Below, one piece after another: positions 8,253 through 58,266 of a DNA stretch of 64,000 bases. The notes below the pieces were generated by a model. It was not told the DNA's origin. It did not search any database and worked only from the letters and a program-made list of their open reading frames with translations. A program made the translations under genes and the position numbers. How positions within the stretch are numbered: the first letter of the stretch is position 1; each line of letters starts with the position of its first letter. The stretch comes from Vicinamibacteria bacterium (lineage in GTDB: Bacteria; Acidobacteriota; Vicinamibacteria; Vicinamibacterales; JAMQPK01): contig JANMJM010000127.1 in assembly GCA_031371345.1 (NCBI GenBank), positions 133-64,132 on the forward strand, in the 5' to 3' direction.

Positions 8253-8327
8253 TGGCTGGGGCGGGTGGATTCGAACCACCGAATACGGGATCCAAAGTCC
8301 CGCGCCTTACCGCTTGGCCACGCCCCA
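8253..8327 (-). tRNA. tRNA-Gln (anticodon UUG), CCA encoded
   Basis: The reverse complement reads TGGGGCGTGGCCAAGCGGTAAGGCGCGGGACTTTGGATCCCGTATTCGGTGGTTCGAATCCACCCGCCCCAGCCA. Features are a 7-bp acceptor stem (TGGGGCG/CGCCCCA), anticodon loop CTTTGGA, T-arm GGTGG-TTCGAAT-CCACC and a 3' CCA. Confidence 0.93.
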
Positions 8328-22112: not shown

Positions 22113-23552
22113 TTACAACAGCGCGGAGATCGATTTGATCGCCAGATCCATCAGGCGCGTCGGCAGGATGCCAAGATAGAAGATCGCAATCGTGGGGACG
22201 CCGAGCGCGAAGAGCGAGGCGGGCGACGGCTTCGTTACGGGCGACAGCGCAATGTCGTCCGACATGTACATCATCACCACGACCCGCAGATAGAAAAACA
22301 CGGAGACGACGCTCGTCAGCACGCCGATAATCGCGAGGCCGTAGTCGCCCGCCGTCACCGCCGCGCTGAAGAGATACCACTTGCCGATGAACCCGGCCGT
22401 CGGCGGAAAGCCGCCGAGAGACAGCAGGAAAATCGTCATCAGCAGCGCGAGCATCGGCTGCCGCTCGGAAAGGCCGGCATAGTCGGCGAGATCGTCGTTC
22501 TGTCGATCGCGCGTGGCGATGAGCGCGGTGACACCGAACGCCCCGACGCTCGTCAGCGCGTATGTGAGCAGATAGAACAACATCGCGCCCTTGCCGATGT
22601 CGTTGCCAGATGTCATCGCCATCAGCAGGTAGCCGGCGTGCGCGATGCTCGAGTAGGCAAGCATCCGCCGGACGTTGCGCTGGACGACGCCGGCCGTGAC
22701 GCCGAGAATCATCGACGCAGCCGACAACACCCACACGACCGGACCCCACTGGGGTTGAAAGCTGCCGAAGGCCGACATGAACACGCGCATGAACGCCGCG
22801 AACGCCGCGGCCTTCACGCCCGCCGACATGAACGCCGTGACGACGGCCGGAGCGCCCTGATACGCGTCGGGCGTCCACATGTGAAACGGCACGGCTGAGA
22901 CTTTGAACGCAAACCCCACGAGCAGCAGCCCGAGGGCGAGGTACGTGAGCACGTCCTGACCCGCCAGGCGGCCGGACATCACGACCACGATCTGATCCAG
23001 CCGCGTCGTCCCGGTCACGCCGAACGTGAACGCGACCCCGTAGAGGAAGAACGCGCTCGCGAACCCGCCGAGCAGAAAATATTTGAAGGCGGCCTCTGCG
23101 CCTTCTTTCGATTCGCGCCGGATGGCCGTCAGGATGTACACGGCAAGCGACAGGATTTCGAGCGCGATGAAAATCACCAGCAGATCGTTCGCCATCGCCA
23201 TCAGCATCATGCCGCCGAGGCCGAACAGCGTGAGCGCGTAATAGTCGCCGGCCGGAATGCCGTCGCGCTCGATCACCTGCGCTGAAAGCGCGATCGTGAG
23301 CACGCCGACGGTGGCGAGAATGAGCACGACGAAGAGGCCGAAGTTGTCTGCCGAAACGACGCCGTAGCTCTGCGCGCCTCTTCCCCACAACAACAGCGCG
23401 GACACGATCGACGCGGCGAGCCCGATGATGCCGAGTCCGCCGATCGGCATACGCTCGTCCGGCGAACGATATGCTTCCGCGAGCATCGCCGCGAGGCCGC
23501 CGAGCCAGACGCACACGATGGGAATGACGGCGGCAAAGCTTCGCATCATCAT
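22113..23552 (-). CDS. nuoN: NADH-quinone oxidoreductase subunit N
   Basis: The ORF runs 22113..23840. The membrane protein starts at the ATGATGATG run (23552), overlapping the nuoM TGA. It has a typical NuoN hydrophobic profile. Confidence 0.9.
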   Translation of the reverse strand: MMMRSFAAVIPIVCVWLGGLAAMLAEAYRSPDERMPIGGLGIIGLAASIVSALLLWGRGAQSYGVVSADNFGLFVVLILATVGVLTIALSAQVIERDGIPAGDYYALTLFGLGGMMLMAMANDLLVIFIALEILSLAVYILTAIRRESKEGAEAAFKYFLLGGFASAFFLYGVAFTFGVTGTTRLDQIVVVMSGRLAGQDVLTYLALGLLLVGFAFKVSAVPFHMWTPDAYQGAPAVVTAFMSAGVKAAAFAAFMRVFMSAFGSFQPQWGPVVWVLSAASMILGVTAGVVQRNVRRMLAYSSIAHAGYLLMAMTSGNDIGKGAMLFYLLTYALTSVGAFGVTALIATRDRQNDDLADYAGLSERQPMLALLMTIFLLSLGGFPPTAGFIGKWYLFSAAVTAGDYGLAIIGVLTSVVSVFFYLRVVVMMYMSDDIALSPVTKPSPASLFALGVPTIAIFYLGILPTRLMDLAIKSISALL

Positions 23553-25081
23553 CGGCCGAGATTCCTTACCTGCTGTCCCTGGGTACGATGAATCTGTTCG
23601 ACGAGGCGCGTCACGGCCGGCTCGATCGGTTTCAGAAACCACATGGGGGCGACGCCCATCACGATGCACATCGCCACCGCCGGCCAGAGCGTCCACCGCT
23701 CGCGCCGCGTCAGGTCTGGCAAGTGCGCGTTTTCCTCGTTCGTCACCGGACCGTAGTTCACACGCTGGAACATCCACAGCATGTAGACCGCCGACAGAAG
23801 CACACCAACCGCGGCGACGGCCGCATAGCGTGGATCCCATCGGAACGCGCCGACCAGAATCAGCAGTTCACCGACGAAGCCGTTCAGTCCAGGTAATCCA
23901 ATTGACGCGAGTGTGACGATCAAAAACGCCGTCGTCAGCTTCGGCAGCACCTTTTTCAAACCGCCGAACTCGGCAATCAACCGCGTGTGACGTCGATCCG
24001 ACAACATGCCGACGATGAGGAAGAGTGCCCCTGTGCTGACGCCATGATTCAGCATTTGATACACGGCGCCCTGCATACCCTGCACGTTCGTTGCAGAAAT
24101 CCCGAGCGCGACGAAGCCGAGATGGCTGACGCTCGAATAAGCAACGAGCTTTTTGAGATCCGGCTGAACCATGGCGACGAGCGCCCCGTAAATAATGCCG
24201 ATCACCGCCAGCCCGCCAAGATATGGAGCGAAATACAAGGCCGCATCGGGGAACAACGGGAAGGCAAAGCGGATCAGGCCGTACGTCCCCATCTTCAAGA
24301 GCACGCCCGCGAGAATGACCGAGCCGGCCGTCGGCGCCTGGACGTGCGCGTCGGGCAGCCAGGTGTGAAACGGAAATAGCGGAACTTTGATCGCAAACGC
24401 GATGGCAAACGCGAGGAAGCCCCAGAACTGCAGCCAGCCCGGAAGCGGCAACTGGTAGAGCTTCAGCAGATTGAAACTGGGCGTGCCTGTGACGGCGCCA
24501 TGGTAATAAGCCAGCGCCAGAATGGCGACCAGCATCAGCACGCTGCCCGCCATCGTATAAAGGATGAACTTGATCGCGGCGTAGACGCGGCGGTCGTACC
24601 CCCAGATGCCGATGAGGAAATACATCGGAATCAACATCGCGTCCCAGAAGATGTAAAACAGGAACAGATCGAGCGAGATGAACACGCCGATCATCGCGCT
24701 CTCGAGTGCGAGCACGACGAGCGCAAACCCCTTCACCCGCTGGTGGACCGATTCCCACGACGACAACAGCGCCAGCGGCGTCAGAAATCCGGTGAGCACG
24801 ACGAGAAACAGGCTGATGCCGTCGATGCCCACGAAATAATCGATGCCGAACGCGGGAATCCACGCGTGTCTCTCGACGAACTGGAAATCGGCAGATGGGG
24901 CGTCGAAGCGGGCCCACAGCAACAGGGTGAACGCGAACTCCACGACGGAGACACCAAGCGCCATCTGCCGGATGAGCTCTTCGCGACGACCGCTGGTGAA
25001 CGCGATGATCGCGAGGCCCGCGATGGGGACGAGCACGAGAAGACTCAGCAGCGGCAATTTATCTCCACAGGTAGTACCCAA
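23549..25081 (-). CDS. nuoM: NADH-quinone oxidoreductase subunit M
   Basis: 510-aa antiporter-like subunit (WLPDAHVQAPTAGSVILAGVLLKMGTYG). Confidence 0.93.
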   Translation of the reverse strand: MGTTCGDKLPLLSLLVLVPIAGLAIIAFTSGRREELIRQMALGVSVVEFAFTLLLWARFDAPSADFQFVERHAWIPAFGIDYFVGIDGISLFLVVLTGFLTPLALLSSWESVHQRVKGFALVVLALESAMIGVFISLDLFLFYIFWDAMLIPMYFLIGIWGYDRRVYAAIKFILYTMAGSVLMLVAILALAYYHGAVTGTPSFNLLKLYQLPLPGWLQFWGFLAFAIAFAIKVPLFPFHTWLPDAHVQAPTAGSVILAGVLLKMGTYGLIRFAFPLFPDAALYFAPYLGGLAVIGIIYGALVAMVQPDLKKLVAYSSVSHLGFVALGISATNVQGMQGAVYQMLNHGVSTGALFLIVGMLSDRRHTRLIAEFGGLKKVLPKLTTAFLIVTLASIGLPGLNGFVGELLILVGAFRWDPRYAAVAAVGVLLSAVYMLWMFQRVNYGPVTNEENAHLPDLTRRERWTLWPAVAMCIVMGVAPMWFLKPIEPAVTRLVEQIHRTQGQQVRNLGR

Positions 25082-26996
25082 CCATGAGCACGGCTCCTAA
25101 CAGGATGGACAGCGCGTAGGCCCGCACCGAACCGGTCTGTATGTGGCGCACGACCGCACCCGTCTCGGCGACGATCGTGGCGGTACCGTTGACGGCGCCG
25201 TCGATGACGGTGGCGTCGAGCCCTTTCCACAGCACGTTTTCGGACAGCGTCTTGATAGGCTGGACGAAGACTTCGTTATAGACCTCGTCGACATAACCTT
25301 TGTTGACGAGGAATCGATACACGCCTGGAAAGCCTGCCGCGAGTCGCTCGGGGATTTCTGGACGTTTCAAATAGAAGCGTGCGGCGATCGCGATGCCCGC
25401 AAGCGCAAGGATCGACGACACCACGATGAGGGTGATCTCGAGCGAGTGACTCGCCGCCGAAGCCGCCGCTTCCCCGCCGGCCGCGCCTTCGAACGCCGGC
25501 GGCATGAAGCTCGGTTCGAGGAAATGCTCGATCCAGTTGCTGCCACCCACCACCTCGGGCACGCCGACGTACCCTGCCAGAATCGAGCCGAGGGCGAGCA
25601 CGGCAAGCGGAATGGCCATCGCGCGCGGCGCATCGTGCAGATGCGTATCGTGGTGCGCCGCTGTGCGCCGAGTTCCGTGGAACGCGAGGAACACGAGACG
25701 GAACATGTAGACCGCCGTCATCAACGACGTGATCGCGCCAATCAACCAGAGCCACGTGTGGCCGCTCGCGAACGTGCGATAAAGAATTTCGTCTTTGCTG
25801 AAAAATCCCGCCAGACCTGGAACGCCGGCGATCGCGAGCGAGCCGATGAGGAACGTCCAGTACGTCATCGGCAACTCGCGCCGCAGTCCGCCCATATTTC
25901 GAAGGTCCTGCTCTCCGGCGAGCGCGTGAATGACCGCGCCGGCGCCAAGGAACAGCAGCGCCTTGAAGAACGCGTGGGTGAACAGGTGGAAGATGCCCGC
26001 GGCGTACGCGCCGACGCCCATGGCGAGGAACATGTACCCGAGTTGCGACACCGTGGAATAGGCAAGCACTCGCTTGATGTCGTTCTGCACGAGGCCGAAC
26101 GCACCGGCCCAGATGGCTGTTGCCGCGCCGATCACGGCGACGATGATGAGCACTTCCGGTGCGTGGCTGAACAGCACGGCGTTGCGGCCGATCAAATACA
26201 CGCCCGCCGTCACCATTGTCGCCGCGTGTATGAGCGCCGACACGGGCGTCGGCCCTTCCATCGCGTCCGGCAACCAGATATAGAGTGGAATCTGCGCCGA
26301 TTTTCCGGTTGCCCCAATGAACAACAGCAACGCCATCAACGACACGGTGCCGAATGACGCCTCGGGAGCGAGCGGTCCCAGCGCGGCGGCAATTCTCTGA
26401 AAGTCGAGCGTGCCGAATCTCACGAAGGCGAGCAGCACACCGAGGATGAACGCCACGTCTCCGATGCGATTGACGATGAAGGCCTTCTTGCCGGCATCGG
26501 CGGCCGACGGTTTCTGATACCAGAATCCAATGAGCAGATACGAGCACAGCCCCACGCCTTCCCATCCGACAAACAAGATCAGAAAGTTGGCGCCGAGCAC
26601 GAGCACGAGCATGAAAAACGCGAACAGGTTCAGATAGGAGAAATATCGCGCGTATTCCGACGCCGGCTCGTCGTGCATGTACGCGGTCGAATAGACGTGG
26701 ATGAGGAATCCGATGCCTGTGACGACCAGAATCATCAGCGCCGAGAGCGGATCGAGCCGCAGCGTCAGTGGAACTTGGAAGTCGCCCGATGCAATCCAGG
26801 TAAATACCGTCTGCATCAACTCACGGCTATCAGGCGCGCGTCCGATGAGCGCAACGACCTCGACCACCGACACACCGAACGCGGCCAGCATGGCCAGCGA
26901 TGCGACGGCGCCGGATATTTCCTTCGGCACGCGTTTGCCGGCGAACGTGTTGATCAGAAATCCGATCAGCGGGAGCAGCGGAATCCAGATGAGCAT
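25059..26996 (-). CDS. nuoL: NADH-quinone oxidoreductase subunit L
   Basis: 645 aa: WLPDAMEGPTPVSALIHAATMVTAGVY, plus the long C-terminal lateral-helix region. Confidence 0.94.
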   Translation of the reverse strand: MLIWIPLLPLIGFLINTFAGKRVPKEISGAVASLAMLAAFGVSVVEVVALIGRAPDSRELMQTVFTWIASGDFQVPLTLRLDPLSALMILVVTGIGFLIHVYSTAYMHDEPASEYARYFSYLNLFAFFMLVLVLGANFLILFVGWEGVGLCSYLLIGFWYQKPSAADAGKKAFIVNRIGDVAFILGVLLAFVRFGTLDFQRIAAALGPLAPEASFGTVSLMALLLFIGATGKSAQIPLYIWLPDAMEGPTPVSALIHAATMVTAGVYLIGRNAVLFSHAPEVLIIVAVIGAATAIWAGAFGLVQNDIKRVLAYSTVSQLGYMFLAMGVGAYAAGIFHLFTHAFFKALLFLGAGAVIHALAGEQDLRNMGGLRRELPMTYWTFLIGSLAIAGVPGLAGFFSKDEILYRTFASGHTWLWLIGAITSLMTAVYMFRLVFLAFHGTRRTAAHHDTHLHDAPRAMAIPLAVLALGSILAGYVGVPEVVGGSNWIEHFLEPSFMPPAFEGAAGGEAAASAASHSLEITLIVVSSILALAGIAIAARFYLKRPEIPERLAAGFPGVYRFLVNKGYVDEVYNEVFVQPIKTLSENVLWKGLDATVIDGAVNGTATIVAETGAVVRHIQTGSVRAYALSILLGAVLMVGYYLWR

Positions 26997-27003
26997 AGGT
27001 CCG

Positions 27004-27306
27004 CTACCCTTTCAACTGCCGGAACGCGTCGGGGTTGAGGGTTTCCATATGGCGGAACAGCGTAATCACCAGCGCGAGGCCCACTGCGGCCTCGGCGGCC
27101 GCCACCGTCACCACAAAAAAGACGATGATCTGCCCGTCGGCAGAGCCGAGGAAATGGCCGAAGGCGATGAAGGTCAGGTTCACGGCGTTCAGCATCACCT
27201 CGATCGACAGCAGGATGGTGATGAGGTTGCGTCGCAGAAACACGCCGGCGATGCCGATCGTGAACAGAACGCCGGAGAGAATCAGATAATGATTCAGCCC
27301 CGCCAT
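27004..27306 (-). CDS. nuoK: NADH-quinone oxidoreductase subunit K
   Basis: 100 aa starting at internal ATG 27306: [44 protein letters not shown]. Confidence 0.92.
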
Positions 27307-27848
27307 GGTTTCTTCTCTGGCAAATGCCGTCCGGCCAGCGCGATGGAGCCGATCATGGCGATCAGAATCAGGACCGACGTCGCTTCGAACGCAAACGCGT
27401 AGTTGGTGAAGAGAATTTTTCCAATTTCGGCAACCGACCAGGCCGTTTCGCGCTCCCCCGTGGCCGGCGCTGCGGCAATGCCTCTCGATCGATTCAGCGC
27501 CCACGCCAGCTCGAGCGCCATCGCGACGGCGAGCAGTGCGCCGAACCATCGTGCGGTCGCCGTACCGCCATCGGACGCCGCTTCCGCCTCGGCGACGGCG
27601 CCTTCCCGCGCGACGTTCAGCAGCATGACGACAAAGAGGAATAACACCATGATGGCGCCTGCATACACGATGATCTGCGTCACCGCGACGAACGGCGCGT
27701 CGAGCATCACGTAAAGTCCGGCGAGTGCCACGAACGAGCAGATCAACAGAAGGACGCTGTAGATGGGATTCGGCTGCGCGATCACGAGCAGCGTAGACAC
27801 GACCGCCATCGCCGCGAACGCGTAGAAGAAGATCAAGTTATGCGCCAA
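27294..27848 (-). CDS. nuoJ: NADH-quinone oxidoreductase subunit J
   Basis: 184 aa: [35 protein letters not shown]. Its start overlaps the nuoH stop by 11 nt. Confidence 0.9.
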
Positions 27849-28869
27849 AGTACAGCACCCCCGCGGCCGTGACGAGCAGGTTGATCACCGAGAGCGGCAG
27901 CAGCACTTTCCAGCCGAACCGCATCAGCTGGTCGTAGCGATATCGCGGCAGCGTCCACCGCATCCACACGTAGAAGAACAAAATCGCGCTCACCTTCAGC
28001 AGGAACCAGATCCAGCCGAGCGACTCCGGCAGAAACGGCCCATGCCATCCGCCCAGAAATAAATCGGTCGCAACCGCCGACACCGTGACCATGTTGATGT
28101 ACTCGGCCATGAAGAACAGCGCGAAGCTCATGCTGCTGTATTCGGTGTGATACCCGGCCACGAGTTCCTGTTCGGCCTCTGGAAAATCGAATGGGGCGCG
28201 GTTGGTCTCGGCGACCCCGGCGGTCATGTAGATGAAAAAGCTGACCGGTTGAATGAAGACGTACCACTTTGGAATGAAGCCGAGCCAGGCGCCCCCCTGC
28301 GCGTTCACGATGTCGCGAAGCGACATGGAACCCGCCAGCACCAGCACACTCGCGAGCGCCATGCCGTAGGAGAGCTCGTAGCTGATCATCTGCGCCGACG
28401 ATCGCAGCGCGCCGAGCAGCGAATACTTGCTGTTCGAGCTCCATCCGGCGAGCACGATGCCGTAGACGCTCATCGATGTGACCGCGAACACGAACAGCAC
28501 CGCCACGTTGACGTCGGCAACCTGAAGAGGAATCGGTGCCGGCAGGAGGCCCCAGAACGTCGTCTCGGCGCCGAATGGCACAACCGCGAACGCGGTGAAG
28601 GCCGCCGTCGCCGAAATGATGGGTGCAAGCGTGAAGAGAATCTTGTCTGCTGCCTTCGGGCGCAGATCCTCTTTCATCATCAGCTTGATGATGTCGGCCA
28701 GCGGCTGGAGCATGCCGTACGGGCCGACGAGGTACGGCCCCATGCGCTGCTGGATCCTTGCCGCCACCTTCCGCTCGACGTAGACCATGATCGCGGCCGA
28801 GTTCAGCAGCATGAAGAAGACAAAGCCCAGAATGCCGAGCTGGGCGATGAGGGTGGCGGAAGGTATCAC
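27838..28869 (-). CDS. nuoH: NADH-quinone oxidoreductase subunit H
   Basis: 343 aa: VERKVAARIQQRMGPYLVGPYGMLQPLADIIKLMMKEDL. Confidence 0.94.
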   Translation of the reverse strand: MIPSATLIAQLGILGFVFFMLLNSAAIMVYVERKVAARIQQRMGPYLVGPYGMLQPLADIIKLMMKEDLRPKAADKILFTLAPIISATAAFTAFAVVPFGAETTFWGLLPAPIPLQVADVNVAVLFVFAVTSMSVYGIVLAGWSSNSKYSLLGALRSSAQMISYELSYGMALASVLVLAGSMSLRDIVNAQGGAWLGFIPKWYVFIQPVSFFIYMTAGVAETNRAPFDFPEAEQELVAGYHTEYSSMSFALFFMAEYINMVTVSAVATDLFLGGWHGPFLPESLGWIWFLLKVSAILFFYVWMRWTLPRYRYDQLMRFGWKVLLPLSVINLLVTAAGVLYFGA

Positions 28870-28951
28870 GTCAGTATTGCCGTCTCGACGCAGAGAAACA
28901 AAACTCTGCGGCTCCGCGTCTTTGCGTCAAAGGCTAAGGAATGCATTTTGA

Positions 28952-30253
28952 TTAGTGCGAGTGCGCCGGGGCCGCCGAGCGGCGGCGCCACGGCGCGGGC
29001 AGCGGGCAGCGCCCCCCGCGAATGTGTGCTTCGTACTCACCCCTGAAATTTTTCAGCGTCGTCAATGCGGGCGTCGCCGCCGCATCGCCAAAGGCGCACA
29101 AGGTTTTGCCCGCAATGAGGCCCGCCACATTTTCGAGCAGCGCCAGATCCTTCATCTCGCCGTCGCCGCGCTCGATTTTTTCCAAAATGTTCAGCAGCCA
29201 TTGAGTGCCTTCACGGCACGGGGTGCATTTACCGCACGACTCGTGACGGTAAAACCTCAGCAGGTTCTCCGCCAGCCAGACCATGCACGTCGTCTCGTCG
29301 AGAACGATGATGCCGGCCGAACCGAGCAGCGATCCCGCCTTCGCCACGCCGTCGAAGCTGGCCTGGATGTCGAGCTGATCGGGAAGAAGAATGGGCACAG
29401 ACGATCCGCCTGGTATGACCGCTTTCAGCGCGCGACCGTCACGCACGCCGCCGGCAATATCAAAAATCAACTCGCGCAGCGTCGTGCTCATCGGCGCTTC
29501 GTAGACGCCGGGCTTCGTGACGTGGCCGCTGACGCAATAGAGTTTCGGGCCGCCGTTTTTTTCCGGCCCGAGCGCCGCGTACCACTCGGCGCCGCGAAGC
29601 AGAATCGACGGCACGTTGCAGAGTGTCTCGACGTTGTTCACCGCAGTCGGGGCTCCATAGAGACCCGCGATGGCGGGAAACGGCGGCTTCAACCGAGGCT
29701 GCGCGCGCTTGCCCTCGAGCGACTCGAGCAGCGCCGTCTCTTCGCCCGCTTCGTACGCGCCGGCGCCGCGATGGATGAAGATGTCGCAATCCCAGCCAAG
29801 GCCCATGGCGTTCTTGCCGACGTAGCCCTTCTTGTACGCCTCTTCGAGCTGCTGCTCGAGCACCTGCTGCACGTGCAGAAACTCGCCGCGTATATAGATG
29901 TAGGCGACCTTCGCGCCGATGGCGTGGCACGCGATGAGGCACCCCTCGAACAGCAAATGCGGGTTGCGCTCCATCAATAAATGATCTTTAAAGGTCCCGG
30001 GCTCGCTTTCGTCGGCGTTGCAAACGATGTACTTCGGTTTCGGTGAGTCCTTGACGACAAACTGCCACTTCATCCCGGCGGGGAATCCGGCGCCGCCGCG
30101 CCCTTTCAGCCCCGAAGCCTTCACGAGCTCGATGACGTCGTTCGGCTTCATTCCCAGCGCTTTACGCAAACCCTCGTATCCCTCGTGCTTGAGATAGAAG
30201 TCGAGCGTGTAACAGTGGGACTCGCGAACGTATTTCGTAAGGATGGCTTCCAC
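28952..30253 (-). CDS. nuoF: NADH-quinone oxidoreductase subunit F
   Basis: 433 aa. It has GLKGRGGAGFPAGMKWQF (FMN/NADH site) and the 4Fe-4S motif SCGKCTPCREG. Confidence 0.95.
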   Translation of the reverse strand: MEAILTKYVRESHCYTLDFYLKHEGYEGLRKALGMKPNDVIELVKASGLKGRGGAGFPAGMKWQFVVKDSPKPKYIVCNADESEPGTFKDHLLMERNPHLLFEGCLIACHAIGAKVAYIYIRGEFLHVQQVLEQQLEEAYKKGYVGKNAMGLGWDCDIFIHRGAGAYEAGEETALLESLEGKRAQPRLKPPFPAIAGLYGAPTAVNNVETLCNVPSILLRGAEWYAALGPEKNGGPKLYCVSGHVTKPGVYEAPMSTTLRELIFDIAGGVRDGRALKAVIPGGSSVPILLPDQLDIQASFDGVAKAGSLLGSAGIIVLDETTCMVWLAENLLRFYRHESCGKCTPCREGTQWLLNILEKIERGDGEMKDLALLENVAGLIAGKTLCAFGDAAATPALTTLKNFRGEYEAHIRGGRCPLPAPWRRRSAAPAHSH

Positions 30254-30262
30254 GTTTTCGCC

Positions 30263-30868
30263 CTAAGCCCTGTCGGGGATCTGATGGTGGCAGCCGGTCA
30301 GTGCGCCCTCGCCGCGAGCGCGGAGATCGTCGGCGAGCTTCCTGGCGTCTTCTGGTTGCAGGCACTCGTGCCAACTGTCGTTCACCATCACCAAGGGCGC
30401 GCGATCGCAGGCGCCCAGACATTCGACTTCCATCAATGTGAAGGTTCCGGTTGAATCCGTTTCGTTGGGCTCGATGCCCAGAACCGACATCAATTCTTCC
30501 GTCACGCGCTCGGCGCCGCGCAGCGCGCACGGAAGCGTTCGGCACACCTGCACCACATATTTTCCGACCGGCCGCGTGTAAAACATGGTGTAGAACGACA
30601 CGACGTCTTCGACGTCCGCCGCGGTGCAGCCAATGACGGTCGCCACATGCTGCACGGAGCTCAGCGAGATGTAGCCGATCTGCCGCTGCACCAGGAACAG
30701 CGCGGGCAGAATCGCCGACTTCCGGCCTTCGAGCGGATAGCGTGTCGCGATCTGCTCGAGACGCGCGCGATTCTCCGGCTCGTAGGCAAACACCTTCCCA
30801 TCATCGAACGGCATTTTGCGCGTCGAGCGATGGAACTCGCGGTAGTCGATCTTTGGGTGAAAGGTCAT
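30263..30868 (-). CDS. nuoE: NADH-quinone oxidoreductase subunit E
   Basis: 201 aa. It has the 2Fe-2S cysteines (VCRTLPCALRG ... VECLGACDRAP). Confidence 0.92.
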   Translation of the reverse strand: MTFHPKIDYREFHRSTRKMPFDDGKVFAYEPENRARLEQIATRYPLEGRKSAILPALFLVQRQIGYISLSSVQHVATVIGCTAADVEDVVSFYTMFYTRPVGKYVVQVCRTLPCALRGAERVTEELMSVLGIEPNETDSTGTFTLMEVECLGACDRAPLVMVNDSWHECLQPEDARKLADDLRARGEGALTGCHHQIPDRA

Positions 30869-30886
30869 ATCAACTTTTGAAGTTTT

Positions 30887-30975
30887 GAACTGGTGAACTG
30901 GTGAACTGGTGAACTGGTGAACTGGTGAACTGGAAACTCCAGATCACCAGTTCACCAGATCGCCAGTTCACCAGA
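30887..30975 (-). repeat. Tandem (GAACTGGT)x5 microsatellite forming a long hairpin between nuoD and nuoE
   Basis: Five perfect 8-mers lie at 30887-30926, with one variant copy. The complementary arm is agatcaccagttcaccagatcgccagttcaccagat. It uses the same word family as 18343..18425. Confidence 0.85.
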
Positions 30976-30980
30976 TTTCC

Positions 30981-32162
30981 TCATCTGTCCACATCCCCCA
31001 TCACCACGTCGATGGATCCGATGACGGCAATCACGTCGGCGATCAACCCGCCGACGATCATCCGCGGCAACGCCTGACACGCGAGCAACGAGGGCGACCG
31101 CGCTTTCAGGCGCCAGGGACGATTCGTGCCGTCGGCCACGACATAGAACCCGTGCTCGCCGCGCGCGCCTTCGACCGGCACGTAGGCTTCGCCGACAGGA
31201 ACCGTGAACCCCTGCGAGTAAATCAAGAAATGCTGAATCAGCGCTTCCATCTCCGTGTAGACGCGATCCTTCGGCGGCGGTACCACCGTCGGCGCGTCGG
31301 CGGCAAAGACGCCGGCCGGGGTGATGCGCGACAGGGCCTGGCGGCAGATCGTGACGCTCTGCCGCATTTCCTCGATGCGCACGAGATAGCGGTCGTACAC
31401 GTCGCCGTCGGTCCCGACCGGCACATCGAAGTCGAACGTATCGTAGCCGCTGTACGGGAAGATCTTGCGGACGTCGTAGTTCCAGCCGGAGGCGCGTCCA
31501 ATCGGCCCCGCCAGGCTGAGCCCGATGCACTCGTCCTTCGACAGCTTGCCCACGCCGCGCGTGCGCTTCACGTAAATTTCGTTCCTGGTCAGCAGACCTT
31601 CGTACTCGTTCAGCTTTGTGGGAAACGTGTCGAGAAACTGCGTGACGGCTTCGTGGAATCCGCGCGGCAGATCGTCGCGAAGGCCGCCCACGCGAATGTA
31701 GCTCGGGAACATGCGGAAGCCGGCGATGCGCTCGTTGATGTCGAGCAGCAGCTCGCGCTCGCGGAAGCAGTACAGCATCACCGAAATCGCGCCCACTTCC
31801 ATGGCGTGCGTGCCCAGCCACACCAAGTGACTGTTGATGCGTTGCAGCTCCGCGAGAAGCACGCGAATCCACTTCACACGATCCGGCATCTCGAGGCCGA
31901 GGAGCCTCTCCACCGACAGCGAGTACGCGAAGGAATTCGACTGAGCGCTCAGGTAATCCATGCGCTCGACGAGGGGAATCACCTGTTGGAATTTTTTTTG
32001 CTCGGCGGTCTTTTCGATGCCGGTGTGCAGATAGCCAATGGTCGGCGACGCCGAGACGACGGTCTCGCCATCGAGCTCGAGCACCAGACGCAGCACGCCG
32101 TGCGTGCTGGGGTGCTGCGGCCCCATGTTAATCGTCATCGTCTCGGTGCGGATTTCCGGCAT
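30981..32162 (-). CDS. nuoD: NADH-quinone oxidoreductase subunit D
   Basis: 393 aa: MTINMGPQHPSTHGVLRLVLELDGE, with a C-terminal ...DVVMGDVDR. Confidence 0.95.
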   Translation of the reverse strand: MPEIRTETMTINMGPQHPSTHGVLRLVLELDGETVVSASPTIGYLHTGIEKTAEQKKFQQVIPLVERMDYLSAQSNSFAYSLSVERLLGLEMPDRVKWIRVLLAELQRINSHLVWLGTHAMEVGAISVMLYCFRERELLLDINERIAGFRMFPSYIRVGGLRDDLPRGFHEAVTQFLDTFPTKLNEYEGLLTRNEIYVKRTRGVGKLSKDECIGLSLAGPIGRASGWNYDVRKIFPYSGYDTFDFDVPVGTDGDVYDRYLVRIEEMRQSVTICRQALSRITPAGVFAADAPTVVPPPKDRVYTEMEALIQHFLIYSQGFTVPVGEAYVPVEGARGEHGFYVVADGTNRPWRLKARSPSLLACQALPRMIVGGLIADVIAVIGSIDVVMGDVDR

Positions 32163-32169
32163 GACCGTC

Positions 32170-32718
32170 TTAGCGACCCGTCCCGGGATTGGCGGCGCGC
32201 GCCGCCCTGTCCTTGGCGAGATTGGCGCGGAACTCTTCTTCGCTCACCTGCAGCGGCTCGGACGACCGGGGCCTCAATCTGATTTGAACGGGGAAATCTT
32301 TGCGCAGCGGATGGCCTTGCCAGTCCTCGGGCATCAGCAGGCGGCGGAGATCGCCGTGATTGTCGAACTCGATGCCAAACATGTCCCACACTTCGCGCTC
32401 GAGCCATCCGGCGGCCGGCCACACACTCTGCACCGTCGGCAGACGCGCCGCCGAGCCTGGTACTGCCACTTTCAATCGAAGGCGCGCCGCAGGAGAGGCG
32501 AGCAGATACACCACTTCGAAGCGAGGCTCGCGCGGCCAGAAATCCACCGCGGTGAGGTCGGCGAGAAAGTTGAAGCCGAGCTCGGGACGATCGCGCAGCA
32601 GCCGGCACACGTCGATCAGCCGATCGGTCTGCACGAACAGCGTTTCCTGCCCGTCGGCGGTCACGATCGGATCGATGACGAGACCCGGCAGCAGGGTCCG
32701 CAGCGCGTCGACGATCAT
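32170..32718 (-). CDS. nuoC: NADH-quinone oxidoreductase subunit C
   Basis: The ORF runs 32170..32898. NuoC sequence starts at ATG 32718 ([12 protein letters not shown]...[25 protein letters not shown]), overlapping the nuoB TGA. Confidence 0.9.
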
Positions 32719-33179
32719 GCGCGCTGGCCCGCGATCTTTTTCTGCAGCTGGACGATGCCGTAGATGAGCGATTCTGGCCGGGGCGGGCAGCCGGGAACGT
32801 AGACATCGACCGGCACGATCTGATCGACGCCCTGCACGAGCGCGTAATTGTCGAACACGCCGCCGATCTACGCGCAGGCGCCCATCGAGATCACCCACTT
32901 CGGCTCCGGCATCTGATCGTAGACGCGGCGCAGCGCGGGCGCCATTTTTCTGGAGAGGCGGCCGGCCACGATCATCAGATCGGACTGGCGCGGCGATCCG
33001 CGGAACACCTCGGCGCCAAAGCGCGCGATGTCGTAGCGCGCGCAGCTCATCGCCATCATTTCAATGGCGCAGCACGCGAGGCCAAAGGTCACGGGCCAGA
33101 TCGACGAGCGGCGGGCCCACTGCACCATCTTCTCGACGCTCGTCGTCAGCACCGGGAGTTCGAGATCGTGATCCGTCAC
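32715..33179 (-). pseudogene. nuoB: NADH-quinone oxidoreductase subunit B interrupted by an in-frame TAG (32868..32870)
   Basis: GTG 33179 overlaps the nuoA TGA. The frame reads ...[15 protein letters not shown]...[59 protein letters not shown], ending at TGA 32715. Conserved NuoB sequence therefore continues in the same frame after the stop. Confidence 0.85.
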
Positions 33180-33535
33180 TGATGACTCCAATCGAGCGCG
33201 CCTTTCTTCCAGACGTAGATATAGCCGGCCGTCAGCACCAGCGTGAACAAGAGGACCTGTAGATAACCCGACCATCCGAGCGCGCGCAGCGCGAGCGCCC
33301 AGGGATAGAGGAACGTGATCTCGATATCGAACAGCAGGAAAATCATCGCGATGAGATAGAACCGGATCGACTGCCGCTCGCGCGCGTCGCCGACCGGCGG
33401 CATGCCGCACTCGTAGGGCGCCATTTTTTCAGGCGTCGGATTGTGGGGTCCGAGAATTCTGGAGAGGAACACGGAGACACCGCCGAATCCGGCGGCCAGC
33501 ATCATCAACAGAAGGATCAGTAGCCAGTCCAGCAT
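33176..33535 (-). CDS. nuoA: NADH-quinone oxidoreductase subunit A
   Basis: 119 aa: ...[42 protein letters not shown]. Confidence 0.93.
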
Positions 33536-33681: not shown

Positions 33682-33954
33682 TTAGTGCGCGTGCGTCACG
33701 CCCAGCGCCTTCAGCTGCTTGTCGAGCTCGGCCAACGCGCTGGTGAGCTGCTGCTTCCTGGCGGTGTGCGCAGTCGTGGCGAGCTGCCGGCTCAGCTCGG
33801 TGTGAGCGAGCCGCAGCGATTCGGCGCGGCGCATGCGTTCCGGGTCGTGATCGGCTTTCTGATTGGCTCGTCGTGCGCGCTCTTCCTCGCGTTCGTCCAT
33901 CCGCTCCTGGATGCGGTTCTGGGCGTCGATTAATCCTTCACCTGCGTCTGCCAT
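33682..33954 (-). CDS. Hypothetical small coiled-coil protein
   Basis: The ORF runs 33682..34029. The likely start is MADAGEGLIDAQNRIQERMDEREEERARRANQ at 33954. It is a charged helical protein of 90 aa. Confidence 0.5.
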   Translation of the reverse strand: MADAGEGLIDAQNRIQERMDEREEERARRANQKADHDPERMRRAESLRLAHTELSRQLATTAHTARKQQLTSALAELDKQLKALGVTHAH

Positions 33955-34013
33955 CGGTAGTCCTTTCGGGGTCGGGAAATTTACAGCTCCTATGATTATA
34001 GTACGATTACCGG

Positions 34014-34514
34014 ATGCCGCCCGCCTCATCTTTTGACGTCACCTCGACCGTCGACTTGCAGGAAGTCGACAACGCCATCAACCAGGCGCGCAAGGAAGTG
34101 GGCCAGCGCTACGACTTCAAGGGGTCGCCGGCGGCCATCGAGTTCAACAAAACTGACAGCACCATGACGCTCGTGGCCGAAGATGCGTTCAAGATGGATC
34201 AGCTCTGGGACGTCCTGCAGACGCGCCTGATTCGGCGCAGTGTGCCGGTGAAAAATCTCAAACTGGGCGATATCGAGAACGCCGGCAACTCCACCGTGCG
34301 ACGGATCATCACGCTTCAGCAGGGAATTCCGAGCGACGCCGCTCGCGACATCATCAAGTACTTGAAGGATCAGAAACTGAAGAAAGTGCAGGCCAACATT
34401 CAGGGCGACCAACTGCGCATTTCTTCACCCTCGAAAGACGAGTTGCAGGACGTGATGCGCCTGCTACGCGATCACGACTTCGGCATCGCCCTCCAGTTTG
34501 GTAATTACCGCTAA
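34014..34514 (+). CDS. yajQ: YajQ-family (UPF0234) nucleotide/c-di-GMP-binding protein
   Basis: 166 aa: SFDVTSTVDLQEVDNAINQARKEVGQRYDFKGS ... ALQFGNYR, with the full-length family pattern. Confidence 0.9.
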   Translation: MPPASSFDVTSTVDLQEVDNAINQARKEVGQRYDFKGSPAAIEFNKTDSTMTLVAEDAFKMDQLWDVLQTRLIRRSVPVKNLKLGDIENAGNSTVRRIITLQQGIPSDAARDIIKYLKDQKLKKVQANIQGDQLRISSPSKDELQDVMRLLRDHDFGIALQFGNYR

Positions 34515-46111: not shown

Positions 46112-47398
46112 ATGATGTCTCACTTTATGCCCGCATTCAGCCGGTTCGCCTCATCGGTCGGCGTGGAGTCGGCCTTCACCGTCTTGGCGGTTGCCAAGAA
46201 GCTCATGGCCGCCGGGAAGGACGTCATCGAGCTCGAGATCGGCGATAGCCCGTTCGCCTCGCCGCAGAAGGTCATCGATGCTGCCATCCAGGCCATCCGC
46301 GACGGCCACACGCGCTACGGACCGTCGCTTGGTATCCCCGAGTTTCGCAAGGCCGCAGCCGAGTACGTGAACCGCGAATACGGTTTGACGGTCACCGCCG
46401 AGCACGTGGTCGCCGGTCCGGGCGCGAAAAACTTCGAGCAGCTGTTCTGCGAGGCATTCCTGAATGCCGGCGACGGCGTGCTGGTCTTCAGCCCGCACTT
46501 CCCGACGTATCCGCCGAATATTTTCCGGCGCAATGCGCGGGTCGTCATCTCCCAACTCAAAGCGTCGCACGACTTCCGCCCGAGCCTCGACGATGTCCGC
46601 CGCTTTCTCAACGAGGACCAGTCGCCGCGCGCGATCTTTTTAAATAGCCCGCACAACCCGACAGGCGGCGTGGCGCTGTTCGAAGACTTGAAGGGGTTGG
46701 CCGATCTGGTTCGAGGACGCGAGGTCGCGGTGTTCAGCGACGAGCCCTACGATCGCATGGTCTGGCGCGGCCGGCATCATAGTCTGCTCGAGCTGCCAGG
46801 CATGCTCGAGCAGACGTTGGCGGCCTATACCTTCAGCAAGTCGTTCAGCATGAGCGGGTGGCGCCTCGGATTTGCCGTCAGCAGCCCCGCGATCATCGAT
46901 GTGTTCGGCAAGCTCACCAACAGCGCGCTTTCGTGCGTGCCGCCGTTTACGCAGATGGCGGGCGTGGCCGCCATGCGCGACGAGCTGCCCTACCGCAACG
47001 CGAAGATGCTGGAGTTTCAAAAGAAGGTCGAGCTGCTCGTGGCGGGATTGAACAAGATCGATGGCGTGTCGTGTCTGATGCCGGGCGGAACGTTTTACGT
47101 GTTTCCCTCGGTCGGGAAGGTGTGCAACCGCCTTGGGATCAGTTCGCAGGGGCTGGCGCTCTTCCTGCTGGAAGGGGCCGACGATCGGCGCGGCGTCGCC
47201 TGCCTGGGAGGCGAGGCGTTCGGCGATGCCGGAAAAGGCTTTCTGCGGTTAAGCTGCGCGCAGCCAGACGAACGGATTGCCGAAGCGGTCGTGTTCATGG
47301 CGCAGGCGTTCACGCGCAAGGATAGGGTCGACGCGTACCTGAAGACTCATCCCGATTATCGGCTCAGCGAGCAGTACGAGGAAATCACCTACGCCTGA
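46112..47398 (+). CDS. Class I/II pyridoxal-phosphate-dependent aminotransferase
   Basis: 428 aa. It has NSPHNPTGG and the PLP-lysine motif FSKSFSMSGWRLGF. Confidence 0.88.
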   Translation: MMSHFMPAFSRFASSVGVESAFTVLAVAKKLMAAGKDVIELEIGDSPFASPQKVIDAAIQAIRDGHTRYGPSLGIPEFRKAAAEYVNREYGLTVTAEHVVAGPGAKNFEQLFCEAFLNAGDGVLVFSPHFPTYPPNIFRRNARVVISQLKASHDFRPSLDDVRRFLNEDQSPRAIFLNSPHNPTGGVALFEDLKGLADLVRGREVAVFSDEPYDRMVWRGRHHSLLELPGMLEQTLAAYTFSKSFSMSGWRLGFAVSSPAIIDVFGKLTNSALSCVPPFTQMAGVAAMRDELPYRNAKMLEFQKKVELLVAGLNKIDGVSCLMPGGTFYVFPSVGKVCNRLGISSQGLALFLLEGADDRRGVACLGGEAFGDAGKGFLRLSCAQPDERIAEAVVFMAQAFTRKDRVDAYLKTHPDYRLSEQYEEITYA

Positions 47399-48528
47399 GC
47401 CGTCGGCGTCGTTCCGCTGACGCCGAGACGTTTCAGGGACGCTTCGAAGTTCGGTTTGTCGACCGACTTCGAGTAGGCCTCGTCGGGGGCCACGATCTTC
47501 TTGGCGACCAGATCGAGCAGCGCCTCGTTCAGCGACACCATACCCACGTTCTTTCCGACCTGCATCATCGACGGAATCTGAAACGTCTTGCCTTCGCGTA
47601 TCAGGTTGGCGATGGCGCTGGTCGCGATCAGCACTTCCAGCGCGGCGATGCGCCCGCCGCCGATCTTGCGGCACAGGGTCTGCGCGATGACGCCGCGGAG
47701 CGATTCCGACAGCATGACGCGAATCTGCGCCTGACGGTCGGCCGGGAACTGATCGATGATGCGGTCAATCGTCGACGCGGCCGTCGTCGTGTGCAGTGTC
47801 CCGAACACCAGGTGCCCCGTCTCGGCCGTCTCAATCGCGATGGCCACCGTTTCCAAATCGCGCAGCTCGCCCACCAGCACGATGTCCGGATCCTCGCGCA
47901 GTGCCGCGCGCAGCGCGGCCTTGAAGGACGTCGTGTGGGTACGAACCTCGCGCTGATTGATCAGGCACTTCTGATTGTCGTGCACGAACTCAATCGGATC
48001 TTCAATCGTGATGATGTGCTCGTCACGGTTCCGATTGATGTAATCGATCATTGCGCACAGCGTCGTCGACTTGCCCGATCCCGTCGGACCGGTCACCAGC
48101 ACAAGCCCTTTGTTGAGTTTGCACAGATTCAGAATGGCCGGGGAGAGGCCGAGCTTTTCGGCCGAGAGAATCTGTGTCGGGATCACGCGAAAGACCGCGC
48201 CTCGTCCTTTTCGATCCGCGTAGATGTTGGCGCGGAACCGCGCGAGGCCCGTAATCTCGTACGCGAAATCGGTGTCGTGGCGCTCGGCAAACTCCGCGCG
48301 GTTCGGCGGCGGCATGATCGGATCGAGTAGCCGCGCCAGAAAGTCGTCGGTCAACGCCGGCATATTCGGATCGAGCGGCTGCATGCGGCCGTCCTTCCGC
48401 ACGAGCGGCGGCGTGCCGACACAGAGGTGCAGGTCCGACGCGCCTCCGTTGACCATCGCGTGAAACAACTTATCAATCGTGTGACCGGTCGCGGGCGCGG
48501 TGCGTTCGGCCTCGGGGGCAAGAGTCAT
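47389..48528 (-). CDS. pilT: Type IV pilus retraction ATPase PilT
   Basis: 379 aa. It has GASDLHL, Walker A GPTGSGKSTT, HLVFGTLHT and the PilT signature AIANLIREGK. Confidence 0.92.
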   Translation of the reverse strand: MTLAPEAERTAPATGHTIDKLFHAMVNGGASDLHLCVGTPPLVRKDGRMQPLDPNMPALTDDFLARLLDPIMPPPNRAEFAERHDTDFAYEITGLARFRANIYADRKGRGAVFRVIPTQILSAEKLGLSPAILNLCKLNKGLVLVTGPTGSGKSTTLCAMIDYINRNRDEHIITIEDPIEFVHDNQKCLINQREVRTHTTSFKAALRAALREDPDIVLVGELRDLETVAIAIETAETGHLVFGTLHTTTAASTIDRIIDQFPADRQAQIRVMLSESLRGVIAQTLCRKIGGGRIAALEVLIATSAIANLIREGKTFQIPSMMQVGKNVGMVSLNEALLDLVAKKIVAPDEAYSKSVDKPNFEASLKRLGVSGTTPTAQA

Positions 48529-54459: not shown

Positions 54460-57327
54460 TTAGAACGGCAGTTTCGCTTCAGTGGTTTGCTCGAACTTCA
54501 CGTCGACGGCGGTCCGCCGCTCGCCGCGGTCGGGATGCGACGCCGTGATTTCGTGAGTGCCGACAACGAGTGGAAGGAGCTCAGCGAACGGCGCCTTGCC
54601 TATCGGCTGTCCGTCGACGCTCACGTCGGTGCCGTCCGGAACGGAAATCTTCAGCGTGCCGGTCGGCAGCGACACTGTGTACGCCGTCACTTCTCCGGGC
54701 TTCACGATCAATGTCTCGTGCTGACGGAAATTGTACCGAGCGTTCACCATCTCGACTTGGTATGTGCCCGGAGCAATCATGAAGCGGCCATCTTCCGCCG
54801 GCGCCACCGTTGCGCCATTCAACTTGATGTCGAGCTTGATCGGCGCGAAGAGCGCCAGCCATCCTGAGAAAATCGCCTCAGATGCGAGCGTCGTCTGTCC
54901 GAGGCGCACCGTCACGCGCCTGATAATGGTGCCTGACCCACTATGCAGCACCAGGTTGTGCGAGCCAGGCTTCAGATTTGGGATCGTCTGAGGTGATTCC
55001 CCGCGGCTCTCGCCATCGAGCGTGATCTGGGCGCCGGCCGGTGTTGTTTCCACCCTCAACGTGCCGCCTTTCACTGGGGGCGCGACGACTTCACGCCGCC
55101 GAACCTCGGTGACGGTGCGTTGGGGAGCGGGCTGGGCGGTCGCCGGTGCTCGCCGCGCACCCGTGTCCATCCCGTTCATCACGACGACCACCAAGGCTGC
55201 GGCCACCGGAAGGCCCCACTTGATCCAACGGACGTAGTTGAACGGCGCCGCTTCCTCGTCTGCTCCCTGCGGACCTTCTGGTTCCGTCGCGTCGCCGCGA
55301 TGGGTGATTTTCTGCCAGAGGCTGTAGTAGTCGCGTCGCTCGCCGGAGAATTGCGCGGCGGCCACCTCGACTTCCGCGACTTCCGCGGGTTGTTCGAGGC
55401 GTAGGGCCGCTTGTTGTTGGAGGCGTAGCGGCGAATCTGCCTGGAGGCGTAGCGGTTGCTGTGGTCGCGCGATGAGCATCGGTGGCGGTGCTTCTGCCAC
55501 GGGAAATGAAATGACCTCGGCCGGCCGACGCGCCGATGCGGCGCGCGCCTGCTCTGCTACGGCGCGGGCTTCTTCCGCGGCTTGGCGTGCCTGCTCGGTT
55601 GCCGCCTGGCGCGCAGATGCGGCTCGCGCCTGCTCTGCGGCAGCACGGGCTTCTTCCGCGGCCTCCCGCGCCTGCTCGGTCGCCGCCTGGCGCATCTCGG
55701 CCATCTGCGTCCGTAGCTCGAGCAGCTGGACCGCTTGACGCTCCTGCGCCTCGGCGCGCACGCGGGCGATTTCAGTTTCGAGAATGGTGTCGGCTTGAGA
55801 GCGCACGCGGGCGATCTCGGCGGCGAGCGTCTGCCGGGCAGCGTCTTCAGCAATCGCCCGCGCCTCTCGCGCGGCGTGCTCACGAATCTGTTCCGCGGTT
55901 TCTTTCGCGTGCGATTGATCGGCGGCGCGCGCGCGCTCGGCGTCCTTGCTGATGCGCTCGAGCTCGGACTTGAGATGCGCGTCGGCTTGCGCGCGAACCT
56001 GGGCCACTTCGGCTTCGAGGGTGCGCGCGGTTTCCGTCGCCTCGTCCTGCACTCGCGTCAAGTCGGCGCGCAGCGCCTCGGCGTCCTGCCGTGCGCGGCC
56101 AATTTCCTGGCTGAGCGTGCGCTCGGCTTCGATCTTCACTCTGTTCACCGCTTCGGCGACTGTGCCTTCCGCCTCCGACCGTACGCGCGCGACTTCCGAC
56201 GCAAGAGCACGCCGTGTCTCCTCCTCCGCTGCCGCTCGCGCATCGGCGATCGCGGCTTCGCGCATTGCATCCGAGTCGGCTTGGAGCCGCGCGAGCTCGG
56301 CGAGGCGACGCTCTTCGGCCTCGGCACGAACACGTTCAAGTTCCCTCGCCAGGTTGGCTTCGGTCTCGGCCTGGACGAGCGCCACTTCAGCGGCCATCCG
56401 TTCGGCCGATTCCTCGTTCTGCACGTCGACCAGCCCCGCCTCGAGACTCAGGCCCAAATCGCGCGCGAGCTGATCGAGATCGCTTTTGCCGGGTTCGGCA
56501 TTCACAGGCGCGGCGGTGAATCGTTCCGACGCCCATGGATCGGCGAACGCTACCGGCTCGATGTTGGTGTTCGGAACGGGCGCGTTGAACACAGATGAGG
56601 TATCAGGAGATTCATTGTGCGAGACCTGGTTCACAGGCGCTGCGGTGAACCGTTCTGTCGACCAAGGATCGGCGGCGCGCGGTTGGTCGAGGACACTCGA
56701 TGGTTCAGCCACGGGTTCGCCGGGCTCTGGCGTCCATGCCGCCGGCTCGGGCGTCCAGGTCGCCGGCTCCGGTGCCCAAGCTGCCGGCTCGGGTGCCGAC
56801 GCGACGGGCTCGGGTGTCCAAGGTTCAGGTTCGGCCGTCCAAGGCTCGGGCTCCGGATTCACCTCCGCTGTTGGCGCATTAATAAGGGTGGGGTACTCGC
56901 GGGTTCGCACTGGCCGGTTTCGTAATTCGGCTGCGCGCTCCAAGTGGGTCGCGACCTCTTCGGCGAAGACCGCCGGGTCGCAACCCGTGGGCGCCGCGGT
57001 CTCTTTTTTTTTCTTCCGGAAGCTGAAGCCCCCGGTCTTCCCCCCCGACGAAGACGACTTGCCCGACGATTTTCGCAATTGCGGAATCGTCAGCGTCTGA
57101 AGATGTGAGGCGCCGTCGAGCGATCGCAGATACGTCATCAACCGGTCTTCATCGCGGGGCGACAGCAAGGCCGTCACAAGGATAACGTCCGGCACCTGTC
57201 GGTCGATGGTCTCGATAGCGGCGTCGATGGACGGCACCAGAACGAGCTCCGCTCCAAGGCGCTTCTGCATCGTCCGCAGAAGATTTGCCTGGTTTGTATC
57301 TGGCTCGACCAGCAACACGACGCTCAT
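54460..57327 (-). CDS. 955-aa receiver-like / acidic-repeat / coiled-coil / single-TM / PEGA-domain protein
   Basis: The N-terminal CheY-like fold is MSVVLLVEPD...PDVILVTALLSP. It is followed by (PEPxxW)n, a long A/E/R/Q coiled coil, a TM segment WIKWGLPVAAALVVVVMNG, and C-terminal PEGA units (LRVETTPAGAQITLDGESRG; LKISVPDGTDVSVDGQPIG). Confidence 0.85.
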   Translation of the reverse strand: MSVVLLVEPDTNQANLLRTMQKRLGAELVLVPSIDAAIETIDRQVPDVILVTALLSPRDEDRLMTYLRSLDGASHLQTLTIPQLRKSSGKSSSSGGKTGGFSFRKKKKETAAPTGCDPAVFAEEVATHLERAAELRNRPVRTREYPTLINAPTAEVNPEPEPWTAEPEPWTPEPVASAPEPAAWAPEPATWTPEPAAWTPEPGEPVAEPSSVLDQPRAADPWSTERFTAAPVNQVSHNESPDTSSVFNAPVPNTNIEPVAFADPWASERFTAAPVNAEPGKSDLDQLARDLGLSLEAGLVDVQNEESAERMAAEVALVQAETEANLARELERVRAEAEERRLAELARLQADSDAMREAAIADARAAAEEETRRALASEVARVRSEAEGTVAEAVNRVKIEAERTLSQEIGRARQDAEALRADLTRVQDEATETARTLEAEVAQVRAQADAHLKSELERISKDAERARAADQSHAKETAEQIREHAAREARAIAEDAARQTLAAEIARVRSQADTILETEIARVRAEAQERQAVQLLELRTQMAEMRQAATEQAREAAEEARAAAEQARAASARQAATEQARQAAEEARAVAEQARAASARRPAEVISFPVAEAPPPMLIARPQQPLRLQADSPLRLQQQAALRLEQPAEVAEVEVAAAQFSGERRDYYSLWQKITHRGDATEPEGPQGADEEAAPFNYVRWIKWGLPVAAALVVVVMNGMDTGARRAPATAQPAPQRTVTEVRRREVVAPPVKGGTLRVETTPAGAQITLDGESRGESPQTIPNLKPGSHNLVLHSGSGTIIRRVTVRLGQTTLASEAIFSGWLALFAPIKLDIKLNGATVAPAEDGRFMIAPGTYQVEMVNARYNFRQHETLIVKPGEVTAYTVSLPTGTLKISVPDGTDVSVDGQPIGKAPFAELLPLVVGTHEITASHPDRGERRTAVDVKFEQTTEAKLPF
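55528..55689 (-). repeat. 2 x 81-bp in-frame tandem repeat inside the 955-aa gene
   Basis: aa 547-573 QAATEQAREAAEEARAAAEQARAASAR is followed directly by aa 574-600 QAATEQARQAAEEARAVAEQARAASAR. Confidence 0.85.
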
Positions 57328-57328: not shown

Positions 57329-57601
57329 TCAGGTCCTCAACATCGCGACGAACAGAAGACATGCCGCCACGAGAAACGCAAAAAGGTAAACGTTGTCGCT
57401 GGCATACCCCGAGGTCACCGCAATGATCGAGTCGACCGTATGGCTGACAACGGCGCTTCCCGTTTCCCACTGCTGGTTCGTAATGCCGCCCGTCACTTCC
57501 CCGGCGCGTTCGCGTACGCGGGGATTGATCGAGACCATCATGACGAGCAGCGCGGTAAGCGCTCCGAGCGCAATCGCGGTGTCGCGGAATTTTTTCTTCA
57601 T
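57329..57601 (-). CDS. Small two-TM membrane protein, first gene of the divergent operon
   Basis: The ORF runs 57329..57724, with likely start MKKKFRDTAIALGALTALLVMMV at 57601 (or 57613). A second TM is VYLFAFLVAACLLFVAML. Its stop is 1 nt from the start of the 955-aa gene. Confidence 0.6.
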   Translation of the reverse strand: MKKKFRDTAIALGALTALLVMMVSINPRVRERAGEVTGGITNQQWETGSAVVSHTVDSIIAVTSGYASDNVYLFAFLVAACLLFVAMLRT

Positions 57602-58000: not shown

Positions 58001-58057
58001 GTTATGACCGCCCGAACGCGCAAAGCCACCGTGGCAGCGCAACCTAAGGAGGAAGAA

Positions 58058-58243: not shown

Positions 58244-58266
58244 GACTGCGTAGCCAGCACTCGCGA

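Follow-up and report, generated by a model that had tools for sequence, protein, structure and literature searches.

An in-frame TAG at a conserved serine codon of nuoB in a metagenome contig of a soil acidobacterium: a private single-base change, most probably a consensus error or a very young nonsense allele

The window, by which we mean the whole 64-kb stretch of DNA analysed here, carries on its minus strand a cluster of nuo genes in the order nuoA-B-C-D-E-F-H-J-K-L-M-N (22113-33535). Apart from nuoB, the genes of this cluster are located as follows:

33176-33535, minus strand, nuoA (PF00507)
32170-32718, minus strand, nuoC (PF00329), its start coupled to the stop of nuoB through an ATGA overlap
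30981-32162, minus strand, nuoD, intact
30263-30868, minus strand, nuoE, intact, ending in TAG
28952-30253, minus strand, nuoF, intact
27838-28869, minus strand, nuoH, intact
27294-27848, minus strand, nuoJ, intact
27004-27306, minus strand, nuoK, intact, ending in TAG
25059-26996, minus strand, nuoL, intact
23549-25057, minus strand, nuoM, intact
22113-23552, minus strand, nuoN, intact

All 11 of these genes (nuoA, C, D, E, F, H, J, K, L, M, and N) proved to be intact, with complete Pfam domains. nuoG and nuoI were not found in the nuo cluster of the window. A preliminary description of this DNA had pointed out their absence, correctly, and had mentioned it beside the possibility that nuoB is a pseudogene; as a mark of decay it does not agree with the integrity of the 11 genes. 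Since a relative with an intact nuoB, L001 (ENA ERZ25039550 contig_61485), has the same nuoF-nuoH-nuoJ-nuoK order as the window, the missing genes are no sign of decay. As judged from this gene order, their absence from the cluster is a lineage trait and not erosion, and nuoG and nuoI must be encoded elsewhere in the genome.

The spacing within the cluster varies among relatives. In many of them a gene for a SIS-domain protein (PF13580/PF01380, ~190 aa) lies between nuoC and nuoD, for example at 4059-4667 in L084, at 2529-3098 in L087, and in JGI contigs; in the window (32163-32169) and in L098 the gap between nuoC and nuoD is 7 nt, without the SIS-domain gene. The nuoD-nuoE spacer of the window contains a 16-nt stretch (30886-30901; TGAACTGG twice) that L095 shares and that is missing in L093 and L094, a minor indel polymorphism of a tandem repeat.

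The nuoB frame starts with a GTG at 33179, overlapping the TGA of nuoA, and ends with a TGA at 32717-32715, within the ATGA that carries the nuoC start. It is divided by an in-frame TAG, and its parts are the following:

32715-33179, minus strand, full nuoB frame of 154 codons plus TGA, recognised by its PF01058 match and its alignment with Nqo6
32871-33179, minus strand, 5' part of nuoB, 103 codons, the product if the TAG is real
33069-33074, minus strand, codons of Cys36 and Cys37, aligned with Cys45 and Cys46 of Nqo6, N2 ligands 1 and 2
32874-32876, minus strand, codon of Cys102, aligned with Cys111 of Nqo6, the third N2 ligand
32868-32870, minus strand, TAG at nuoB codon 104 (cta on the plus strand), placed by translation and by the codons of relatives
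32715-32867, minus strand, 3' part of nuoB, 50 codons plus TGA, in frame and including PGCPP
32787-32789, minus strand, codon of Cys131 (in PGCPP), aligned with Cys140 of Nqo6, the fourth N2 ligand

With the stop masked, NuoB matched the Pfam profile PF01058 over its full length (7e-30, profile positions 1-128 of 128) and could be aligned with Thermus thermophilus Nqo6 from end to end and ungapped (E = 1e-73). Residues C36, C37, C102, and C131 of NuoB were in register with C45, C46, C111, and C140 of Nqo6, the four residues that ligate cluster N2 in the published structure from T. thermophilus. The TAG aligned with Ser113 of Nqo6; it interrupts the GACA-S-IGG motif two residues past the third cysteine ligand, and the fourth cysteine lies 27 codons 3' of it. 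These results bear out what the preliminary description had read from the sequence, namely, a TAG within the GxCAxxGG region of nuoB (on the minus strand, which it left unstated), a nuoB TGA overlapping the nuoC ATG, and in-frame, NuoB-like 3' codons that include the last N2 cysteine. A product ending at Ala103 would be devoid of the fourth ligand and could not hold N2.

The uninterrupted frame expected of the NuoB/Nqo6 family is thus broken here at codon 104. The position of the gene between nuoA and nuoC in the nuo operon is the expected one, and the same synteny was found in L001, L084, L085, and L098. The truncated 103-aa product is present, as an exact match, in a public protein collection (P0135, from an NCBI contig of 65,125 bp). 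The TAG site is ~32 kb away from both ends of the window.

We then determined which codon the relatives carry at this site. The residue in the codon-104 column was Ser in all of the 21 closest database proteins (84-95% identity), in a GACASIGG motif. Among the 67 loci in which the motif was located, drawn from species-representative genomes and one metagenome contig, it was Thr in 40, Ser in 26, Asn in one, and a stop in none, and the closest of these loci carried TCG. The closest NuoB among the GTDB species-representative genomes scanned was 92% identical. Most of the weight in the comparison is carried by two contigs. L085 (GCA_031372605.1, JANMLO010001115.1), located through its identical YajQ protein, aligned with the window over 5,096 nt without gaps at 99.67% identity and has TCG where the window has TAG; the plus-strand base at 32869 is G in this closest strain and T in the window. 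The other, L098 (ENA ERZ28573519), is 95.4% identical to the window over 3.5 kb and likewise has TCG at codon 104; its NuoB is intact, with 154 aa, and apart from residue 3 and the stop codon matches that of the window. The TAG was therefore found in one of the three sequences at ≥95% nucleotide identity that cover codon 104. A further contig, L097 (98.8% identical), ends 91 nt short of this codon, and L093, L094, and L095 have no coverage of nuoB.

Since the nearest relatives, including L085 and L098, read TCG, the TAG is due to the change of a single base, C>A when read on the coding strand and G>T at 32869 when read on the plus strand, and this change is private to the window contig. By the same comparison, it arose after the window split from the strain that is 0.33% divergent. 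A change of TCG to TAG had been put forward beforehand as one example of how the stop could have come about, and the codons of the relatives identify it as the actual one.

The window and L085 differed at 17 positions, with no sequence context shared among them. The other differences of the window from L085, L093 to L095, and L097 resembled natural polymorphism, and many of them were common to independent contigs. Positions 1-98 of L085, at the contig end inside nuoC, are low in G+C and have no match in the window, and 8 of the 17 mismatches fall in the 290 nt right after them, which probably reflects a chimeric contig end or a mixture of strains. In L001, nuoC, nuoD, nuoF, and nuoH were each called in several fragments, while nuoA and nuoB were called as one fused product of 247 aa, the codon at the TAG site still being TCG; this assembly appears to be full of frameshifts, perhaps because of long reads.

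Two other contigs in which NuoB ends at the same residue were considered and rejected. A scan of all JGI metagenome contigs for a TAG at codon 104, with the pattern MGACA-TAG-x-GGVFDNY and degenerate flanks, gave one match, L086 (JGI Ga0222749_10062606, 1590-1671), in which the TAG is the ninth codon from the contig end. The 17 codons past this TAG carry five more changes, three of which affect residues invariant in 22 aligned relatives; the changes past the TAG are mostly A<->C swaps, and the remaining 1.6 kb are clean. The L086 TAG thus looks like a product of low-quality read tails at a contig end. The second contig, L096 (ENA ERZ27268069 k141_506917, 1-633; protein P0147), has a NuoB ending in ...SMGACA, but it is a 633-bp chimera in which the N-terminal part of nuoC is followed by the end of nuoA with nuoB codons 1-104 and then by the middle of nuoC, so that the TGA was created at the junction; the joins may lie at a short shared CTGCGCC-like sequence. 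Since one of these stops shows the pattern of a contig-end error and the other belongs to a chimera, there is no conserved or recurrent stop at nuoB codon 104.

As to selection on the gene, comparison with the four closest lineages gave no non-synonymous but 9-18 synonymous differences in the 45 conserved codons past the TAG, which indicates strict purifying selection on the 3' part of nuoB; upstream of the TAG, the respective numbers were 0-4 and 30-41. The 3' part has thus been under full purifying selection for essentially all its history. When genes were called over the whole window by a simple codon-usage method and the ~65 products scanned against Pfam, no second interrupted gene and no frameshifts came to light, and nuoB was the only one of the ~65 predicted genes with good in-frame coding potential past a stop that was not explained by the next gene, which goes beyond chance. 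The features of an old, decaying pseudogene were absent: the nuoB 3' codons and the other 11 nuo genes had no further lesions and no relaxed selection, and the lesion was not common to related genomes, L085 and L098 both carrying TCG. Polarising the strain differences with L098, as a gauge of relaxed selection on the lineage of the window, gave no information, since the strains share their alleles in mosaic fashion.

The use of TAG in the rest of the window was then determined. In the 64 predicted genes, the terminator was TAG in ~22, TGA in 23, and TAA in 19. The genes ending in TAG include alr, rplI, rpsR, pth, rplY, prs, nuoE, and nuoK, among them all five named in the preliminary description (alr, prs, rpsR, rplY, and rplI), and Pfam matches reach the C-termini of their products, for example at position 317 of 318 in prs and 100 of 100 in nuoK. 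Being both a frequent terminator and one up to which the Pfam domains extend, TAG is a normal stop in the window. The search for a suppressor tRNA, proposed in the preliminary description, found a single tRNA gene in the window:

8253-8327, minus strand, tRNA-Gln (anticodon UUG), the sole tRNA gene of the window, not a CUA suppressor

No tRNA with a CUA anticodon was found within the 64-kb window, nor were there any pyl genes (pylT, pylS, pylBCD) in the window, in which ~65 proteins were scanned. The RNA around and past the TAG (116 nt) folded no better than shuffled sequence (z = +0.5).

In the light of these data, readthrough of the TAG, in which UAG would be decoded by a suppressor tRNA encoded elsewhere or by a near-cognate tRNA to give useful full-length NuoB, is very unlikely. 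The 50 in-frame and perfectly conserved codons past the TAG would speak for it, but the recent origin of the change, given the TCG in the 99.67%-identical L085, fully accounts for their conservation, and the stop was not shared by the orthologues in the closest proteins, the 67 loci, L085, or L098. An efficient suppressor would also be harmful, as TAG ends ~22 of the 64 genes, including nuoE and nuoK. The window has no CUA-anticodon tRNA, the RNA structure 3' of the TAG is like that of shuffled sequence, and the JGI scan gave only the single TAG match at the error-ridden contig end of L086. A real TAG combined with a UAG-suppressing tRNA or an unusually leaky release factor 1, so that enough full-length NuoB with some residue at position 104 is made to keep complex I working, is very unlikely in our estimation; if true, the suppression would be a case of natural strain-level nonsense suppression rescuing a core respiratory gene. 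Use of TAG for pyrrolysine, or another reassignment of it in this organism, is extremely improbable and effectively refuted, since TAG is the ordinary terminator of one third of the genes, with Pfam domains reaching the C-termini, and not a rare or absent one (~22 of 64 genes), no pyl genes occur among the ~65 window proteins, and the orthologues never have TAG at this site but Ser or Thr instead; nothing beyond the in-frame TAG itself speaks for such a reassignment. NuoB might also be made as two polypeptides, with re-initiation at the GTG of codon 108 (ORF 32715-32858), which lies four codons past the TAG, but no relative examined has a split at codon 104, the conserved CAxxGG motif would lack Ser104-Gly107, no Shine-Dalgarno sequence could be recognised by eye before the GTG, and the split would have had to arise within 0.33% sequence divergence; we consider this, too, exceedingly improbable. 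Even jointly, all the recoding and split-gene ideas are very unlikely. Of the three explanations named in the preliminary description, a sequencing error and a very recent nonsense mutation survive, while local readthrough or suppression is unsupported, as the stop is missing in a 99.67%-identical strain, TAG is a common terminator, and the RNA fold is unremarkable.

The comparisons thus point to a single-base, contig-private change in a strongly constrained gene, and what has to be weighed is its origin in the assembly or in the cell. We give about an even chance to the TAG being one wrong consensus base in a metagenome-derived contig, a plus-strand G>T at 32869 that would have turned TCG into TAG because of low coverage, a miscall, or oxidative G>T damage; the true nuoB of the organism would then carry TCG (Ser104) and encode a normal 154-residue NuoB with cluster N2. 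Consistent with a consensus error, the window alone has the TAG out of three sequences at ≥95% identity covering codon 104, NuoB is extremely constrained, the other nuo genes are intact, and no further gene is interrupted in the window. Lying 150 nt ahead of the nuoC start, which is translationally coupled to nuoB, the stop should cripple the operon as a whole; the cost to be expected lowers the odds of a natural allele at high frequency. Moreover, since the two other contigs ending NuoB at codon 104 are artefacts, such artefacts do occur at nuoB in metagenome assemblies. Against a consensus error stand the distance of the TAG site from the contig end and the clean window, whose ~65 intact genes imply a low local error rate; since the other strain differences of the window look genuine, a real private allele fits equally well. 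A systematic error linked to methylation or to a motif was considered, the unmutated site being CGATCG, but was rejected because the 17 differences from L085 share no motif. That the base at 32869 is an artefact and not a real allele is thus what we infer, a young allele being almost as likely.

Such an allele would be a real, very young nonsense mutation, private to a strain or population, that leaves a 103-residue fragment with the stop after Ala103. It would fit the otherwise high quality of the contig, the resemblance of the other differences from L085, L093 to L095, and L097 to natural polymorphism, the lack of an error-prone motif at the TAG site, and the absence of further decay, which is what a very recent event would leave. 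At a strain divergence of 0.3-1.4%, a few segregating nonsense alleles are expected per genome, and this expectation also speaks for a real allele. It is opposed by the presence of the TAG in only one of the three sequences at ≥95% nucleotide identity covering the site, by the conservation of NuoB, which ranks with the most conserved proteins that the operon encodes and is 100% identical to that of L098 except for one N-terminal residue and the stop, and by the high fitness cost to be expected. If the allele is true, the operon would encode an inactive complex I, nuoC through nuoN would probably be expressed at a lower level, and the cell would depend on another NADH dehydrogenase. The prior for an error or a mutation striking nuoB is, by our own rough estimate, ~0.02%. 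On balance, we regard an error in the consensus and a loss-of-function allele of very recent origin as about equally likely; our verdict from the sequence comparisons is that the TAG is an ordinary private nonsense substitution, with recoding very unlikely.

With regard to known systems, the gene resembles NuoB/Nqo6/PSST (NDUFS7), the N2 subunit of complex I, in its full PF01058 domain, its four cysteines in register, and its nuoA-B-C-D context with coupled overlaps, and differs in the TAG at the Ser after GACA, which no other member examined has except for the two artefactual contigs. An in-frame UAG followed by conserved 3' coding sequence is also a feature of programmed UAG recoding, as with pyrrolysine in methylamine methyltransferases or readthrough by suppressor tRNAs; unlike in those systems, the UAG of the window lacks conservation even among strains of the species, genes here often end in UAG, and neither recoding machinery nor a stimulatory RNA element turned up in the window. 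A search of the literature for Vicinamibacteria and nuo gave no relevant result. From nascent pseudogenes and the "internal stop" consensus errors of metagenome-assembled genomes we found no difference, since the gene is one base off a near-identical strain and shows no second lesion and no relaxed selection. The internal stop of nuoB therefore belongs to a well-known class and is not novel, whether the changed base comes from the cell or from the assembly.

The TAG accordingly has little biological weight and at most identifies a single strain of an uncultured Vicinamibacterales-like acidobacterium as a recent mutant in complex I. For annotation, nuoB should be flagged "internal stop, possible sequencing error" and should not serve as evidence for recoding or pathway loss. 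In-frame stops in highly conserved genes recur as artefacts in metagenome assemblies, and at nuoB codon 104 they are exemplified by one contig-end error and one chimeric join.

Two further features of the window concern regions outside the nuo operon. Between yajQ and nuoA, the relatives have a conserved gene of 89-90 aa on the nuoA strand, without a Pfam match. In this region of the window, the gene finder picked a plus-strand ORF at 33685-33933 over a minus-strand ORF at 33682-34029; the latter, from Met26 onward (MADAGEGLID...), is more likely to be the real gene. A Tad/Flp pilus cluster occupies 57329-63998 and 47389-48528 and comprises genes for a Flp pilin, an A24 prepilin peptidase, TadE, RcpC/CpaB, a secretin, and a TadG-like protein. 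It is adjoined by a gene at 54460-57327 whose product, of 955 aa, has PEGA domains; farther upstream there is a gene for a T2SSE-type ATPase.
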